Positions 4,196 to 41,328 of a DNA stretch of 59,428 nt are shown here, piece by piece (the first letter of the stretch is position 1; each line of letters starts with the position of its first letter). Position numbers and translations under genes: made by a program. The stretch comes from a virus (Duplodnaviria > Caudoviricetes). The stretch is from positions 1 through 59,428 of the IMG/VR virus record IMGVR_UViG_3300025127_000036; one strand, written 5' to 3'. The notes beneath the pieces were generated by a model, which was not told the origin of the DNA, did not search any database, and was given only the letters and a program-made list of their open reading frames with translations.

Positions 4196-4906
4196 ATGGC
4201 TTTTGGACATAGTTCATTTTCAGGCGCAGCCTTTTCATCAACTGGAAGTACACCAGGAACAGTTGTTGTTACAGGTATATCTCTTACAGCTTCTTTAGGT
4301 AATACAACAACACAAGCAAATGCAAATGTATTTCCAACATCAAACTTAATTACCTCAGCTATAGGAAGTGTAAGTGTTGCTTTAAACACACCTGTTAATG
4401 TATCAGGTTCCCAACTTACAACTAATATTGGTAACTCAATCATATCTGGTAATGCAAACGCAAATGCAACAGGTTCATTGCTAAGTCTTTCAATTGGAAG
4501 TGTTACAACGATCGGTAATGCGAACGTCACTGTTACAGGAAATCAATTAACATTATCTTTAGGTAACACAACACAGCAAGCAAATGCAAACGTAAATGTT
4601 ATTGGACAACAGTTATCGCTAAATATTGGTAATGCATCAGTTGACCTTAATACTCCAGTCAATGTAACTGGTAGTGCTTTAAACACTAATATTGGTAGTG
4701 TAAGTGTACAAGCTAATGCAAATGTAAGTCTGACAGGTATACAGCTAACTACAAGCATTAATTCACCGTTAATTATAGCTTGGGCTGAAGTAGATCCTGG
4801 AGTCACTAATACGTGGACAGCTGTTGATCCAAGTGTAACAAATACTTGGAATGTAGTAGATCCAGACGTTACAAACACTTGGACTGAGGTTGATATAGCA
4901 GCTTAG
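4196..4906 (+). CDS. repetitive virion structural protein
   Basis: ~26-aa repeats (V-x-V-x-G-x-x-L-x-x-x-[IL]-G) and four C-terminal W-x-x-V-D repeats. Confidence 0.7.
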   Translation: MAFGHSSFSGAAFSSTGSTPGTVVVTGISLTASLGNTTTQANANVFPTSNLITSAIGSVSVALNTPVNVSGSQLTTNIGNSIISGNANANATGSLLSLSIGSVTTIGNANVTVTGNQLTLSLGNTTQQANANVNVIGQQLSLNIGNASVDLNTPVNVTGSALNTNIGSVSVQANANVSLTGIQLTTSINSPLIIAWAEVDPGVTNTWTAVDPSVTNTWNVVDPDVTNTWTEVDIAA

Positions 4907-36051: not shown

Positions 36052-36354
36052 TTATCTTGGATCTTCCCATTCATAGCCATCAAAAATTTTAACCAGTGGT
36101 GATCCACTCATATCAAAATCTTTTTTGTGTCCATATTTGAAAAATATTTTATGAGCTAATTTTGCTAAATGCTTTCTAACTCTTAACATTTTTCCTAATG
36201 TGTACTCATCACCGATTTGCTCTAACTCTGTTCTTACATGTTTGTTTTCAGTGTCCAGAGCTTCTGCAATAGCATTCATTAAAATCTCTCTAGCCATCTG
36301 CCCCTCTGTGTAACCTTCAAACTTTTTTTGTTCGTATCTCATTTTTTCCTCCAT
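36052..36354 (-). CDS. hypothetical early protein
   Basis: ORF track; start uncertain (36354 or 36342). Confidence 0.65.
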   Translation of the reverse strand: MEEKMRYEQKKFEGYTEGQMAREILMNAIAEALDTENKHVRTELEQIGDEYTLGKMLRVRKHLAKLAHKIFFKYGHKKDFDMSGSPLVKIFDGYEWEDPR

Positions 36355-36377: not shown

Positions 36378-36425
36378 ATCATATCCCATGTAAATAAGAT
36401 ATACAATGGTCAAAAGTGTCGCACC
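36378..36425 (-). promoter_or_regulatory. sigma70-type early promoter with upstream GGTGCGACACTTTTGAC box
   Basis: TTGTAT-17-TATGAT; 17-mer identical to 38188-38204. Confidence 0.6.
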
Positions 36426-36643: not shown

Positions 36644-36822
36644 TTTTCCCCCTTTTCTAATGTTTGATATTCTAGCCATCCGTTGCCCTCACTTACACCC
36701 TCTAAAAATGCATTTAATTCATCATCCGTTTTAAAAGTGTATGTTTTGTCTGTGTAACCTTTAATTGGTTTTTCTGTTTTTCTTACTGCCTCAGTGCCCC
36801 AAATAATCCTAATTTTTTTCAT
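36619..36822 (-). CDS. hypothetical early protein
   Basis: IIWG..YTFKTDDELNAFLEGV..GWLEY. Confidence 0.7.
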   Translation of the reverse strand: MKKIRIIWGTEAVRKTEKPIKGYTDKTYTFKTDDELNAFLEGVSEGNGWLEYQTLEKGEKWNTAQQK

Positions 36823-37046
36823 CCTTGACCCCCATATTTTAATGTTTCAAGTTTATCAATCACCTTATCAAATTCTTCACAACTACAAGTTGTATCCTCC
36901 TCAGTCTCTGGTTCGCCTTTTGCCTGCCATTCGCTATGCTTGCATACATGGAAATCAGCGTCTCTGAGATCTCTTATATCTTGCATTATATCTTCGATAA
37001 CGTCATCATGAAGTTGATCTGCTTTATCTAAAATGTCTAAATGCAT
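36819..37046 (-). CDS. hypothetical acidic early protein
   Basis: GGAGG RBS; coupled. Confidence 0.65.
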   Translation of the reverse strand: MHLDILDKADQLHDDVIEDIMQDIRDLRDADFHVCKHSEWQAKGEPETEEDTTCSCEEFDKVIDKLETLKYGGQG

Positions 37047-37523
37047 TTAATTACCCTCCAATCCAAATTGTTCAGCGTTGTTTATTCTTTTTGTCTTTTC
37101 TTCGAGACTTAGGCTGTCCCAATCCTCAGGAAACGTACAACCCGCAATTTCAAAAAATCTTTTTTTCTGCTCTATTGATTTTTCATCCCCTGTTGATAGT
37201 AACCCAAAAAGTTTTGAAACCATGGCGGTCGTTTTTATTACATCGTTTTTTGGTTTATCTGGATTTATGCCCTGAGCTTTTTTTAATTCATCTTCAAATA
37301 TAGAGTTTTTAATTCTATACTCTTTTCTGGCATAACCATTAAAGTCTTCGATCCAATTAAGATGTTTTGCTGTTGTTACCGACCAAACATTTTGACTAAT
37401 ATAAAATCTGTGTTGATCATCAACAAACGCTACTGGTGTTGAATAAGAATAAAATACTCTTATTCCGTCTTCATCTTTATAATAAAGATTTTTAGTTGAT
37501 CTTAGATATATTTTTTTACTCAT
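37047..37523 (-). CDS. conserved early phage protein
   Basis: AAGGAG RBS; FYSYSTPVA..WSVTTAKHLN motif. Confidence 0.75.
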   Translation of the reverse strand: MSKKIYLRSTKNLYYKDEDGIRVFYSYSTPVAFVDDQHRFYISQNVWSVTTAKHLNWIEDFNGYARKEYRIKNSIFEDELKKAQGINPDKPKNDVIKTTAMVSKLFGLLSTGDEKSIEQKKRFFEIAGCTFPEDWDSLSLEEKTKRINNAEQFGLEGN

Positions 37524-37542
37524 TTTTTTCTCCTTTTGTTTA

Positions 37543-37584
37543 ACCCCTTAATCTTATCATATCCCATCAATAAGATCAAGGGGT
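37543..37584 (-). promoter_or_regulatory. promoter embedded in a 15-bp inverted repeat
   Basis: TTGATC-17-TAAGAT; ACCCCTTGATCTTAT/ATAAGATTAAGGGGT. Confidence 0.6.
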
Positions 37585-37591
37585 AATTTAT

Positions 37592-37795
37592 TTATTTTTT
37601 ATTTTCTATTTCACGCTCTTTTAGTTTATCTGCGATAAAAGACCTGACACTATTTGAAATTGCGGTCTGGTGTTTACCTCGATCACGTTTTGACATTTTT
37701 AATTGAAAATGTTTCTGTTCATCTCTCAGGCCCGTTGCTTGATCAAATTTATAGATCAAGTATCTAGCCTCTTGTCTCTGTTTAAATGTACTCAT
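37592..37795 (-). CDS. hypothetical early protein
   Basis: AAGGA RBS before MSTFKQRQEAR; the longer ORF-track start runs through the ribozyme. Confidence 0.65.
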   Translation of the reverse strand: MSTFKQRQEARYLIYKFDQATGLRDEQKHFQLKMSKRDRGKHQTAISNSVRSFIADKLKEREIENKK

Positions 37796-37813
37796 TTTTT
37801 TGTCCTTTTGTTT

Positions 37814-37873
37814 TGGCATCTCATCAGTATGCGACCGCCACTCGCATAGACGGGGCAATGCCCCGTTTCGATA
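37814..37873 (-). ncRNA. type II hammerhead ribozyme
   Basis: UAUC-GAAA-CGGGGC(AUU)GCCCCG-UC-UAUGCGA(GUGGCGG)UCGCAUA-CUGAUGA-GAUGCCA: full core, three stems, GUC site. Confidence 0.92.
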
Positions 37874-37875
37874 GA

Positions 37876-38121
37876 TTAATTAAAATGTAATTCACCGCTT
37901 TCATTAACTCTAAGATTATTTTCCATTTCAGTTAAAAATTCGTCAAAATAACCTTGACCCGCGCCACTCTCTGCTTGTCTTTTATATCTATAATTAAACC
38001 ATGATAACAATTCATCTTTTGTTGATTTGAAATAATCTTCTGCAAAACCGTTGTAAATATAAATTGATTTAGCTGATTTTATTTTTTTGTTTATCGCTGT
38101 TCTTCTCTGTGCATTTGTCAT
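37876..38121 (-). CDS. first gene of early leftward operon, hypothetical
   Basis: AAGGA RBS before MTNAQRR; ORF-track start lies inside the promoter. Confidence 0.65.
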   Translation of the reverse strand: MTNAQRRTAINKKIKSAKSIYIYNGFAEDYFKSTKDELLSWFNYRYKRQAESGAGQGYFDEFLTEMENNLRVNESGELHFN

Positions 38122-38163
38122 TTTTTTATCCTTTGTTGTTTTGTTCATATAATATCTATATAA

Positions 38164-38204
38164 GATATAATGGGATATAATCATATAGTCAAAAGTGTCG
38201 CACC
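38164..38204 (-). promoter_or_regulatory. sigma70-type early promoter with upstream GGTGCGACACTTTTGAC box
   Basis: TTGACT-17-TATATC. Confidence 0.65.
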
Positions 38205-38266
38205 CATAAATTAATTACACGTATAAGTTGTGTTGTAAATTTGCAACATGTGTTGTAGTTTTGTTC

Positions 38267-38686
38267 ATGTCACAACCTGAGGCCCAACTTTGGAAACAAG
38301 TAAAAGAAGCTTTACAACATCAAAATTATTTTTTAACCAGAATTGAAACGTTGACGGTTTCAGGTGTTCCAGATGTATTTGGTTGTTACCGTGGACAATC
38401 TTTTTGGTTAGAATTAAAATCAAATCAGGTCAATTATCCAACGTTGAATAAACATCAAATTGTCTGGATTAACAAAGCAATTAAACATGGATTAAATGTA
38501 TTGATCTTGCATAGAGCCCAAAAGCAAAAGACGCTCAAAATCTACAGACCATTAACTTTTTTTACTGATCCGCGATCCCTTATCCCTGTTTTTATTTGCA
38601 AAATTCCTGTGCGATGGCCGTTATTCGTTGACCATTTTACGCGGGCCGTGTTGACTGATTTAAAAAACTTAAACGCGGATCAGTGA
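38267..38686 (+). CDS. VRR-NUC/Holliday-junction resolvase-like PD-(D/E)XK nuclease
   Basis: PEAQLW..RIET..SGVPD..FWLELK..HQIVW. Confidence 0.82.
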   Translation: MSQPEAQLWKQVKEALQHQNYFLTRIETLTVSGVPDVFGCYRGQSFWLELKSNQVNYPTLNKHQIVWINKAIKHGLNVLILHRAQKQKTLKIYRPLTFFTDPRSLIPVFICKIPVRWPLFVDHFTRAVLTDLKNLNADQ

Positions 38687-38710
38687 CCGTTGACCGTTGA
38701 CCGTTGACCG
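38684..38710 (+). repeat. tandem 7-mer (TGACCGT) x ~4
   Basis: TGACCGT TGACCGT TGACCGT TGACCG just upstream of terL. Confidence 0.9.
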
Positions 38711-38854
38711 CTTACAAGGCTCAATCGAAACATGAAACCAGATCCGTTAAAATTAAAAAAAACACCACCGCGCGCGAAAAATGTATCTTACAGCGCGACA
38801 CTTGTGGCAAGTTGCATAGACGTATATAAGGTTCAAATGAAACGGATTTCTTAA

Positions 38855-40339
38855 ATGCAAACCAACCTTGATAGATTAACCGATGAAGAACTAAGGGACT
38901 TAGTATTAAAGAAGCAGCTGGAATATATAAAATTATGCCAAGATGATTTCTTAGCTTTTGCGCAGGCAGTTTGGCCAGACTTCATTTATCGTAAAACAAA
39001 GGACCCAAAAAGATACGGCCACCATCAAATAATTTCGGAAAAATTTCAGGACATAGCGCAAAACAAAGAAAAAAGATTAATTATAAATATGCCACCAAGG
39101 CATACTAAATCTGAATTTGCTTCATACTTATTTCCTGCTTGGATGATTGGCAGAAACCCTAAAATGAAATTGATGCAAGTTTCACACAATGCTGAACTTG
39201 CAGTAAGGTTCGGTAGCAAAGTAAGAAATTTAATGGATACCGAAGAATACAAAACTATATTTGGAGATGTTAAACTAAGAGAAGATAGTAAAGCAAAAGG
39301 ACGTTGGGAGACCAATCATGGTGGGGAATATTTTGCAGCGGGTGTTGGCGGTTCTATCACAGGACGAGGGGCGGACTTACTTATTATCGATGATCCACAT
39401 ACGGAACAAGATTCAATGTCAGACAAAGCAATGGATCGTGCTTACGAGTGGTATAGCTCAGGGCCAAGACAACGTTTGCAACCAGGTGGAAGAATAATAG
39501 TGGTCATGACCCGTTGGGCAACAGACGATCTCACCGGTCGTTTAGTGAAGGCTCAAACAGAACCAAAAGCGGACAGATGGAACGTAATAGAATTTCCAGC
39601 CATCATGCCTACCGGAAAACCAGTTTGGCCTGAGTATTGGAAACTAGAAGATTTAGAAGCAGTCAAAGCATCTGTGTCAACAAAGAACTGGAATGCACAA
39701 TATATGCAGGACCCAACCTCAGAGGAAGGGGCTATAATAAAAAGAGAATGGTGGAATGATTACGATAAAGATTACCTCCCTAGATTGCTGCATGTCATAC
39801 AAAGTTATGATACTGCATTTAGCGCCAAAGAAACGGCAGACTACTCTGCAATAACAACTTGGGGAATATTTCAACCAGTTGAAGGTTACGAAAACGCAAT
39901 TATTTTACTTGATGCAATAAAAGGCAGATATGACTTTCCTGATTTAAAAAATGTTGCTTTAGAACAATATAAATATTGGGAACCTGAAACAGTGATCATT
40001 GAGGCTAAAGCAAGTGGCCAACCTTTAATACACGAATTGAGAAGAGCAGGACTACCTGTAATAGATTATGTGCCCGCAAAGGGAAGAGATAAGTTTACCA
40101 GGATTAATAGCTGTTCTCCAGTGTTTGAATCAGGAATGGTGTGGGCCCCTTTAGATGAAAAATTTGCTCAAGATGTAATTGAGGAATGTGCAGCTTTTCC
40201 TAATGGTCAATATGATGACTATGTAGACAGTATGACCCAAGCTGTGCTAAGATATAGACAAGGTGGTTTTGTAAATACATACTCAGACGATTGGGACGAT
40301 CCACCAATTAAATTAGAAAAGGAATATAAATATTATTAG
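38855..40339 (+). CDS. terL: terminase large subunit
   Basis: INMPPRHTKS (Walker A), LLIIDD (Walker B), MTRW, SYDTA..ADYSA, FPNGQYDDYVDS nuclease motifs. Confidence 0.95.
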   Translation: MQTNLDRLTDEELRDLVLKKQLEYIKLCQDDFLAFAQAVWPDFIYRKTKDPKRYGHHQIISEKFQDIAQNKEKRLIINMPPRHTKSEFASYLFPAWMIGRNPKMKLMQVSHNAELAVRFGSKVRNLMDTEEYKTIFGDVKLREDSKAKGRWETNHGGEYFAAGVGGSITGRGADLLIIDDPHTEQDSMSDKAMDRAYEWYSSGPRQRLQPGGRIIVVMTRWATDDLTGRLVKAQTEPKADRWNVIEFPAIMPTGKPVWPEYWKLEDLEAVKASVSTKNWNAQYMQDPTSEEGAIIKREWWNDYDKDYLPRLLHVIQSYDTAFSAKETADYSAITTWGIFQPVEGYENAIILLDAIKGRYDFPDLKNVALEQYKYWEPETVIIEAKASGQPLIHELRRAGLPVIDYVPAKGRDKFTRINSCSPVFESGMVWAPLDEKFAQDVIEECAAFPNGQYDDYVDSMTQAVLRYRQGGFVNTYSDDWDDPPIKLEKEYKYY

Positions 40340-40347
40340 GAGATATT

Positions 40348-41328
40348 ATGCCATTAAAAATGTTTAGAAAAAACAAAGATAAAAAAGAAGACAAAAATAA
40401 AAAATCAAAAGGCTCTTCTAAGTTAGATATTTTCAAAAGCTACGGCAAATATGATGGCAAACCTGTAGAATTAAAAATAGGAGGAACGATGCTCAAAAAC
40501 CCAAAAAAAGCAGATTTAGATAAAGACGGAAAACTTTCCGGTTACGAAAAGAAAAGAGGAATGGCCATCGAAAAATCTATGAGTGGAAAAAAATTTGGTG
40601 GTGCCATGAAACAAAAACCAATGAAGGCTGTATTAGGAGCGATTGCATTAGGATTAGGTGCTAAAAAAATGATGGAGAAGAAAAAAGGTTCTGCATCACC
40701 AGGAAAAATTGGTATGACAGGCGTAGGTGGAATGGCCGCTAATCTTTATGAAAAAAAGAAAAAAGAACTTATGCAAGGTAAAAAAAGAGGCGGTGTAATG
40801 AAGTACAACAAAGGTGGCGGAGCTGATACCGGAAGAATGGGTGAAATAAAAAGTAGCTTAGCTGTTACTGCAAACAAATTAAGTAAAATTAATACACCAG
40901 GAAGACTTTCCGAAAAAGATAAGGAAACATTAAAAAAACTTTCTAAAGTTAGAAATGCTAAGCCATTAAAAAAAATGGGTGGTGGATTAATGAGTGCTAC
41001 TAAAAAATCTATGGGAGGACCAGCTGGAGAAAAAAGAGATATTAGAAAAGTTGAACACATGACTGGAAAAAACGAAAATAAATTTGTAGACAAAAGAAAA
41101 AAAGCTATGGGTGGCGGCATGATGCAAAAACCTATGGGTTATGGCAAAGGCGGAATGAAAGATAAAAAAATTGTTAAGATTGCTATAGGTATAGGTAAAG
41201 CAAAAGATTATCCTGGAATGAAAAAAATAATGGAGATGAACAAAAAAGGTAAAAAAAGATTTAACACCGGTGGTTCAGTTTCAGTAAGTACAAAATTAGG
41301 TAGAAATAAACCAACAAAACTTTATTAG
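40348..41328 (+). CDS. highly basic K/G/M-rich repeat protein, likely capsid-internal
   Basis: About ten xxxGG repeats; EF-hand-like ADLDKDGKLSGYE. Confidence 0.7.
   Translation: MPLKMFRKNKDKKEDKNKKSKGSSKLDIFKSYGKYDGKPVELKIGGTMLKNPKKADLDKDGKLSGYEKKRGMAIEKSMSGKKFGGAMKQKPMKAVLGAIALGLGAKKMMEKKKGSASPGKIGMTGVGGMAANLYEKKKKELMQGKKRGGVMKYNKGGGADTGRMGEIKSSLAVTANKLSKINTPGRLSEKDKETLKKLSKVRNAKPLKKMGGGLMSATKKSMGGPAGEKRDIRKVEHMTGKNENKFVDKRKKAMGGGMMQKPMGYGKGGMKDKKIVKIAIGIGKAKDYPGMKKIMEMNKKGKKRFNTGGSVSVSTKLGRNKPTKLY

Follow-up and report, generated by a model that had tools for sequence, protein, structure and literature searches.

A type II hammerhead ribozyme in a portable cassette at an operon junction of an uncultured HTVC023P-like marine phage

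Background

Does the short sequence between the first two genes of a phage operon encode an RNA that cuts its own message? The question is raised by IMG/VR virus record IMGVR_UViG_3300025127_000036 (Duplodnaviria; Caudoviricetes), which we analysed over its whole length of 59,428 bases and refer to as the window (98% complete according to CheckV, 34% G+C). A prediction made from the sequence alone had placed a type II hammerhead ribozyme on the minus strand between two small genes, here called g1 and g2, and had proposed that it processes the operon mRNA. Natural type II hammerheads with a pseudoknot between loop I and the 3' tail were described by Perreault et al. 2011 (PMC3088659), and type II hammerheads other than that of the window cleave in vitro and in vivo (PMC3088659, PMC8782182). 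What they do for their carriers had been called unresolved in the original prediction, in agreement with a 2019 review in which the purpose of genomic hammerheads in bacteria and phages is given as still undefined (PMC6765202). We argue below, with a probability of about 0.8, that the window, from an uncultured HTVC023P-like marine phage, encodes an active ribozyme and that the operon mRNA is cut by it between g1 and g2.

A canonical hammerhead between g1 and g2

When both strands of the whole window were compared with 4227 Rfam families, RF02276 (Hammerhead_II) matched the minus strand with 42.6 bits, above its gathering score of 37, and E = 2.3e-5. The match (37811-37873) spans the full model (1-66 of 66), reaches 3 nucleotides (nt) further 3' than the boundary at 37814 given originally, and was the hit kept after clan competition. 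In a permissive scan of the same window and families it was the sole match at E<=1, in one copy, and RF02276 matched none of 14 control genomes (0/14).

Every feature that the original prediction had named, from the core and stems I-III to the GUC triplet, the cut at 37849/37848 and the complementarity of UGGC and GCCA, lies on the minus strand where it had been placed (Table 1). Along the RNA the order is stem II 5' strand, GAAA, stem III hairpin, cut, stem I hairpin, CUGAUGA and stem II 3' strand; stem II is open while loops cap stems I and III, which is the type II permutation. The cleavage triplet GUC at 37851-37849 conforms to NUH, and A37866 pairs with U37850 to close stem III. One nucleotide, G37817, is common to the terminal U.G pair of stem II and to the pseudoknot, so that stem II is effectively 3 bp once the 4-bp pseudoknot forms. 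The tail that follows the stem II 3' strand reads CCAAAA.

Compensatory change in stems I and III

Relatives were collected through the terminase gene, which yielded 80 loci (83-99% identity) whose full records were searched with RF02276, and through a pattern of the conserved 3' half of the ribozyme. The pattern found 10 viral contigs, 6 of them new, and the five tested all scored above the Rfam cut-off (37.8-41.5 bits); 32 metagenome stretches also matched. Pattern searches bias the sample toward copies with the same loop and tail. Loci are designated by L numbers.

When 9 distinct sequences are aligned with MAFFT, 98.4% of the cells are paired, against 31-48% once the pairing partners have been slid; 7 pairs have changed on both sides. 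A covariance model of our own (R1) was built from this alignment and run over 43 loci. It gives the window ribozyme 85.7 bits and, at E<=0.01, produces 45 matches, 42 of full length and 3 cut by contig ends, with none in four ribozyme-lacking controls. In the alignment of the 45 matches (A3, with 30 distinct rows) 98.5% of the cells are paired (33.5-46.4% when slid), and both sides have changed in 14 of the 21 pairs, namely 6/7 in stem III, 7/7 in stem I and 1/3 in stem II. The pairs of stem I are 100% paired and those of stem II (2-4/96-98) 97.5%; for stems I and III together, 13 of 14 pairs show compensatory changes with 96-100% pairing. Not one of 500 shuffles matched the observed value on any of five measures. 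A3 was fitted to the model and so favours the structure, for which the MAFFT alignment serves as the independent check. The model score and the strong covariation in stems I and III bear out the assignment to the type II hammerheads with a predicted loop I/3'-tail pseudoknot, and they establish that the fold has been conserved.

The catalytic parts are kept as well. The CUGAUGA/GAAA core is invariant in all 9 distinct sequences of alignment A1, and the cleavage triplets found among relatives (GUC, CUC, UUC, GUA and GUU) are all NUH. Second copies in L089 (1715-1782) and L247 (347-414) read CUGAAGA, with A at core position 7, which is the one variable position of the hammerhead core. The pseudoknot letters UGGC/GCCA are kept in 29 of 29 rows and never vary, most of the rows having been found with a pattern that fixes those letters; being invariant and fixed in advance by the search patterns, they make covariation neither an argument for the pseudoknot nor one against it. 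Loop and tail are likewise unchanged in the two copies that R1 alone recovered.

A portable intercistronic cassette

The ribozyme does not travel with a particular gene, but it does travel with a particular layout. Among the viral contigs, all 11 instances place the end of the upstream stop codon at -2 to +2 nt relative to the ribozyme start, and an ATG follows 12-19 nt past its 3' end, behind a Shine-Dalgarno (SD) sequence of AAGGA or GAGGA type in an A-rich leader. For the metagenome contigs the range is -3 to +2 nt in each of the 29 instances where an upstream open reading frame (ORF) could be called, and the ATG lies at 12-22 nt. The genes on either side differ: taking both sets, and counting from ORF ends rather than by clustering, at least 15 families lie upstream and at least 15 downstream. 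Because the cassette sits between so many gene families, selection acts on the RNA element and not on a given neighbour gene.

The order g1 - ribozyme - g2 of the window recurs in L002 and L088. In L091 and L093 a different gene, of 92 amino acids (aa), precedes the ribozyme; in L003, L004, L089 and L011 a g2-like gene (g2') precedes it, with a 101-aa gene or g3 following. L004 and L089 have the hammerhead at the g2'-g3 junction, the place at which the window has a 17-bp hairpin. In five contigs two copies bracket one small gene (Table 1), which is g2' in L089 and L247 and a 75-aa gene in L230 and L237, L242 being the fifth; such bracketing copies would free a one-gene RNA with 5'-OH and 2',3'-cyclic-phosphate ends. 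Wherever both could be placed, the ribozyme lies 946-1272 nt from the start of the large terminase gene (TerL) on the divergent strand, including two records in which TerL identity is 56-64%, and at least 7 of the 10 records examined have it after the opening ORF of the leftward unit. In its behaviour the element is a portable intercistronic cassette.

Hairpins of a related appearance occur at some junctions. Stand-alone GC hairpins before g3 in L003 and L005 are nearly identical to stem III of the L011 hammerhead, and in L012 a stem-III-like hairpin before g3 is followed by a near-core motif (4639-4768), a hammerhead-like string that gave no hammerhead match in L012 even at E<=10. These hairpins may be decayed ribozymes or independent hairpin elements, the idea of relics coming from visual resemblance.

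RNA contigs that end at the predicted cut

Four marine metatranscriptome runs of one study hold parts of the region in the form of assembled contigs, 7 pieces of which fall on 36800-38700. Two of them, record 4 of X2 (sample S2; 225 nt, 37624-37848, 3 differences) and record 5 of X3 (sample S1; 180 nt, 37669-37848, 2 differences), align over their whole length with no loose ends; they share the end at 37848 and differ at the other. This is the nucleotide predicted beforehand as the 5' end of the 3' product, and a uniform null gives a probability of about 2.5e-5 that at least 2 of 14 contig ends land on a single position named in advance. The DNA assemblies of the window, L002 and L088 continue through the cut site. 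We regard the shared end as a weak-to-moderate hint that the predicted bond is cleaved in nature, and it is to this extent that the self-processing at GUC foreseen in the original prediction has gained support.

Other features of the contigs do not bear on the matter. No RNA contig spans 37849/37848, and the 45-50 nt up to the contigs on the g1 side (ends at 37894 and 37899) are uncovered; contig depths also differ between genes. Neither is evidence, since contigs and their depths cannot show absence or level. Among the 32 metagenome stretches none ends exactly at the cut, a comparison that is uninformative about RNA ends because the stretches appear to be DNA assemblies.

How the ribozyme would process the message

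On the reading that we prefer, the element would be a cis-acting and host-independent processing site between cistrons. Once its 63 nt had been transcribed and the ribosome had left the abutting stop codon of g1, stems I-III and the loop I/3'-tail pseudoknot would form, and the RNA would cleave itself after C17 (37849). The 5' product would be a short message for g1 that stops at the GC-rich hairpin of stem III, presumably with a 2',3'-cyclic phosphate. The 3' product would carry g2 and the downstream genes behind what should be a 5'-OH, set on a compact stem I that is locked by the pseudoknot, both strands of which would lie in this product; an unstructured A-rich Shine-Dalgarno leader would follow some 10 nt past the pseudoknot structure. 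We infer the chemistry of the ends, the timing and the consequences for stability and translation from this arrangement.

Ends with a 5'-OH are a poor entry for 5'-end-dependent decay, and terminal hairpins protect the 3' ends of RNA. Phage T7 relies in a similar way on cuts that the RNase III of its host makes between early genes, and synthetic ribozymes such as RiboJ insulate downstream genes from their upstream context. The likely pay-off would be that decay and translation of the two parts of the mRNA are uncoupled.

Packing against the stop codon across the class

A looser type II pattern returned at least 120 viral stretches, with 117 new loci (L095-L211). Among the matches listed, to which all class-wide counts refer, 90 were parsed as complete type II hammerheads (79 distinct), mostly on GC-rich contigs, several of which carry 2-3 copies. 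They provide 88 non-redundant contexts, in which ORFs were called naively (the longest ORF of at least 60 aa). An upstream ORF of this length ends within 200 nt in 80 of the 88; its stop ends no more than 8 nt before C11.1 in 57 of these 80 (median 4 nt), and the distance from tail to next start has a median of 16 nt (n=70), with 45 at 25 nt or less. Given that the ORF calls are naive, the stop/SD packing of the window is typical of the class rather than special. A subset of the other viral contigs in this set has an ATG just 3 nt past the GCCA tail and no visible SD.

The same packing can be read in favour of a somewhat different role, in which the ribozyme is active but senses upstream translation. 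A ribosome on the stop codon would cover stem II and part of stem III, so that cleavage would occur only after ribosome release or on untranslated mRNA, coupling processing to translation. In favour of such gating, in all of the subfamily instances (11/11 and 29/29) the stop codon overlaps the 5' strand of stem II or ends at most 3 nt away from that strand, the class-wide figures point the same way, and stem II has only 2-4 bp. However, plain genome compaction also predicts tight packing, the ordinary junctions in ribozyme-lacking relatives are about 20 nt, and the class-wide ORF calling is naive. We consider a translation-gated switch unlikely, though not negligible.

A linker without benefit, or a mobile module

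The distribution of the cassette can also be read without any role in expression. Under this explanation the unit of about 80 nt that comprises ribozyme and SD would be a selfish or neutral linker between mosaic blocks, serving as a patch of homology for recombination or as a small mobile unit. The same cassette between many gene pairs, its patchy presence among close relatives, the near identity of the 3' half and leader in records whose TerL is 56-64% identical, and the records with two copies around one gene are all in keeping with this. What such a linker leaves unaccounted for is the kind of conservation observed: compensatory changes in 13 of the 14 pairs of stems I and III show selection on the RNA fold and not on DNA identity, and the catalytic core is strictly kept. 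A linker of no benefit to expression is therefore, in our view, an improbable explanation.

It is tempting to combine these ideas, and to see the unit of stop codon, hammerhead and SD as a general, mobile, host-independent operon-processing module of phages that is gated by ribosome release and doubles as a recombination joint. We hold this broad proposal to be doubtful. If it were true, abundant SAR11-type phages would use the cassette instead of RNase processing sites of the host; cleavage would separate out single small genes, with a downstream 5'-OH, pseudoknot-capped end that escapes 5'-end-dependent decay; and the cassette would also be the joint at which genes are shuffled among these phages.

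Weighing the case for an active ribozyme

Several observations weigh against an active processing site at this junction, and they concern its distribution, its fold and the RNA contigs. First, the element is dispensable: only 4 of the 80 records related through TerL carry the ribozyme at E<=0.01. The RF02276 scores are 41.5 bits for L002, 39.5 for L003 and 41.1 for L011, while L004 (34.3) is under the cut-off; a C.U mismatch at 15.2-16.2 occurs in some relatives, L004 for example. Of the 80 loci, 63 extend at least 1100 nt upstream of the terminase. The local architecture of the window is shared, over enough sequence, by 8 relatives, of which 4 carry the ribozyme and 4 lack it (L005, L012, L016 and L020). 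The four closest deposited phages (HTVC023P, HTVC027P, 023Pt_psg01 and DSL-LC04) gave no match to RF02276 at E<=0.1, and a blastn search with the 91-nt element gave none in 50,697 phage records, so that no cultured system was found there. As to other known ribozymes, relatives without the hammerhead yielded 0 Rfam matches at gathering scores (12 loci, 147,479 bases).

Second, the nearest-neighbour minimum free energy (MFE) fold of the element, at -22.5 kcal/mol, is not that of the hammerhead, for which the value is -20.0 kcal/mol when the pseudoknot is left out; the MFE fold retains stem III and not the complete hammerhead. A mismatch of this kind is usual where a fold leans on tertiary contacts. 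The pseudoknot of the window has just 4 Watson-Crick pairs. The importance of this pseudoknot has been demonstrated by mutation in a different, metagenome-derived type II hammerhead, and, again in a type II hammerhead other than that of the window, a reduction from 6 to 4 pairs lowered the observed rate constant (kobs) about 20-fold (PMC3088659).

Third, the RNA contigs come from a single study, and contig ends cannot prove RNA ends. The ribozyme is a repeat of the sort at which assemblies break: 3 of the 32 metagenome stretches break off within the element (model positions 9, 31 and 44; Table 1), the contig in L218 stopping one nt upstream of the predicted cut. A co-occurring variant at C17 could in principle produce the same break, though none with the same stem I and downstream gene was seen, and the RNA contigs cross the downstream edge of the repeat unbroken.

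Taken to their conclusion, the short pseudoknot, the MFE fold that is not a hammerhead and the many relatives that lack the element would mean an inactive relic or a chance look-alike that does not cleave in vivo. This is very hard to square with a score above the Rfam cut-off, an intact core, strong covariation and RNA contigs that end at the predicted nucleotide, and we give it little credence. An intrinsic terminator, attenuator or protein-binding hairpin is most improbable: stem III is a GC-rich hairpin right after a stop codon and the L003 and L005 junctions have lone hairpins resembling it, but it is followed by UCUAUGCG with no U-run, a terminator scan lists no site at 37811-37873, and the CUGAUGA/GAAA core and covarying stem I would go unexplained.

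Genomic setting of the ribozyme operon

The TerL protein of the window is 71% identical to that of Pelagibacter phage HTVC023P, with 79% nucleotide identity over part of the gene, and 61-63% identical to those of HTVC027P, 023Pt_psg01 and DSL-LC04. About 18 small ORFs on the minus strand, from 38184 down to 33288, diverge from the endonuclease-like gene, terminase and portal; this block is flanked on its far side by a replication module, in which there are SNF2 and UvrD helicases together with a family A DNA polymerase. No tRNA genes were found in the window. In the isolate HTVC023P (L212, 13282-22703) the genes upstream of the terminase share its strand, and the clade of the window has a divergent leftward operon there; the ribozyme operon therefore sits where the organisation departs from that of the isolate. 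In the gap between terminase and portal, a 326-aa ORF (40348-41328, plus strand) abounds in K, G and M and contains KKxGG-like stretches that recur.

The leftward unit is headed by a 16-nt promoter-like block (38203-38188). A second exact copy lies on the minus strand at 36424-36409, before a 100-aa ORF at 36354, and a third, with 3 mismatches, on the plus strand at 38793-38808, before the terminase, against a chance expectation of 0.31 copies. The block looks like part of a phage promoter or operator. No clear -35/-10 spacing can be assigned in it, for which reason the transcription start remains a predicted one; a sigma-70 promoter scan was uninformative (22 sites against 21.5 expected). With the block before g1, and only g1 between block and ribozyme, the ribozyme belongs to the first leftward unit, after its first gene, which accords with the placement between the first two ORFs in the original prediction. 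Early expression of g1 and g2 is plausible from their size and position.

Alignment with relatives suggests that the true start of g1 is probably ATG 38121, which would give an 81-aa product behind the SD AAAGGA, and that the listed start at 38184 probably falls in promoter or leader sequence. For g2 the start is ATG 37795. A longer g2 ORF running through the ribozyme is not credible, and was rejected because g2 homologues that head the operon in relatives, with no ribozyme before them, begin at the same Met. In Pfam and PHROGs no family was matched by g1 (at the curated cut-off) or by g2.

At the g2-g3 junction the window has the 17-bp hairpin mentioned above, which none of 200 shuffles (0/200) folds as well as; it may serve as a site of RNase III type or to stabilise the RNA. 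A short motif in the loop of this hairpin is shared with the region just downstream of the promoter-like block near 36400.

Table 1. Coordinates of the ribozyme, its parts and neighbouring features in the window, and of ribozyme copies in other contigs
Feature	Sequence	Coordinates	Strand	Basis or remark
Promoter-like block, 16 nt	window	38188..38203	-	heads the leftward unit holding the ribozyme; conserved in relatives with and without ribozyme
g1, 102 aa as listed	window	37876..38184	-	ORF; sole gene on predicted 5' cleavage product
Type II hammerhead ribozyme, whole element, 63 nt	window	37811..37873	-	Rfam RF02276; own model R1
Stem II 5' strand UAUC, open helix	window	37870..37873	-	starts 2 nt past g1 stop codon
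Core GAAA (G12 A13 A14 A15.1)	window	37866..37869	-	invariant in alignment A1
Stem III hairpin: A15.1-U16.1 pair, CGGGGC/GCCCCG, loop AUU	window	37850..37866	-	read from sequence; 37865-37860 pairs with 37856-37851
Cleavage site between C17 (37849) and U1.1 (37848)	window	37848..37849	-	predicted from hammerhead core, GUC triplet
Stem I hairpin UAUGCGA/UCGCAUA, loop GUGGCGG	window	37828..37848	-	read from sequence; 37848-37842 pairs with 37834-37828
Core CUGAUGA	window	37821..37827	-	invariant in A1
Stem II 3' strand GAUG	window	37817..37820	-	pairs with UAUC 37873-37870
GCCA in the 3' tail, predicted to pair with UGGC of loop I (37840-37837) as a pseudoknot	window	37814..37817	-	complementarity from sequence
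A-rich leader with Shine-Dalgarno AAGGA (37807-37803) for g2	window	37796..37813	-	sequence; accompanies ribozyme in relatives
g2, 67-aa basic protein	window	37592..37795	-	ORF and SD; first gene on predicted 3' product
17-bp hairpin at g2-g3 junction	window	37543..37584	-	fold z = -4.79; then same A-rich SD leader type, no U-run
Endonuclease-like gene	window	38267-38686	+	PHROG 2165/93
Large terminase (TerL)	window	38855-40339	+	
Paired ribozyme copies	L089	1715-1782 and 2013-2080		
Paired ribozyme copies	L247	347-414 and 48-115		
Paired ribozyme copies	L230	656-721 and 966-1031		
Paired ribozyme copies	L237	617-682 and 309-374		
Paired ribozyme copies	L242	372-437 and 842-910		
Contig ending inside ribozyme	L218	1715-1753		model position 31; probably assembly break
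Contig ending inside ribozyme	L226	1781-1841		model position 9; probably assembly break
Contig ending inside ribozyme	L236	1-26		model position 44; probably assembly break

Comparison with known systems

The processing proposed here resembles that at the RNase III sites of T7, and the insulation provided by RiboJ, in that an intercistronic cut leaves hairpin-ended, independently stable and translatable segments, with the upstream context gone from the 5' leader. Unlike RNase III, a ribozyme cuts without a host enzyme, and the ends are 5'-OH and 2',3'-cyclic phosphate rather than 5'-phosphate and 3'-OH. The element of the window belongs to neither kind of system.

Among natural ribozymes, the closest are the members of RF02276, known from bacteria, phages and metagenomes, with which the element of the window has in common the core, the topology (stem II open and short) and, as set out in the published descriptions, a proposed role in transcript processing. 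It differs from the RF02276 consensus in belonging to an AT-rich, HTVC023P-like subfamily with the loop GUGGCGG and with GAUGCC in place of GCAGCC at the tail, and in occurring as one copy in the window rather than in clusters. In most type II members a pseudoknot of at least 4 bp joins loop I to the tail 3' of stem II, and the UGGC/GCCA complementarity of the window would allow one. The clustered hammerheads of prophages flank single genes that are not constant, and processing of long phage transcripts into gene-length mRNAs was proposed for them (PMC3088659); three type II hammerheads of Desulfovibrio vulgaris are active according to cyPhyRNA-seq (PMC8782182). Both sets share with the cassette a position between phage-like genes of changing identity, and both come from a host group other than that of the window. 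With its single copy, the window lacks the bracketing of the clustered prophage type, where two or more ribozymes lie within a few kb around a gene or short run of genes; such bracketing is present in L089, L247, L230, L237 and L242. The terms 'stop codon', 'Shine-Dalgarno' and 'ribosome binding' do not occur in the main text of PMC3088659, the supplements to which may list members of the present subfamily.

The hammerhead HHphage of haloviruses HF1 and HF2 is found just ahead of the opening ORF in a polycistronic transcript whose 5' end was mapped no more than 3 nt from the cleavage site (PMC3088659), a parallel to the contigs of the window that end at 37848; HHphage differs in having an atypical insertion in its core, which in the window is canonical, and in belonging to a hypersaline archaeal virus. 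Self-cleaving ribozymes in the untranslated regions of RNA mycoviruses, which make translation initiation possible, are also viral ribozymes right upstream of an ORF, and their self-cleavage affects translation (PMC13725137). These are type I hammerheads of eukaryotic RNA viruses with cap-independent translation, whereas the window is from a DNA phage with an SD leader.

The overall picture of type II hammerheads is left unchanged by this locus, yet it offers a clean natural case, with a single canonical ribozyme at a defined operon junction in a nearly complete genome from an abundant group of marine phages. Natural variants number in the dozens, and there are natural 'swaps' in which the same junction has the ribozyme, a plain hairpin or nothing. 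To the known systems we add the cassette behaviour in HTVC023P-like marine phages, the stop/SD packing, the natural variants of the junction and transcript contigs from the field whose ends coincide with the predicted bond. Of these, the packing is a simple and testable regularity, looser across the 88 other contexts among the matches listed, and it bears on a possible link between cleavage and translation.

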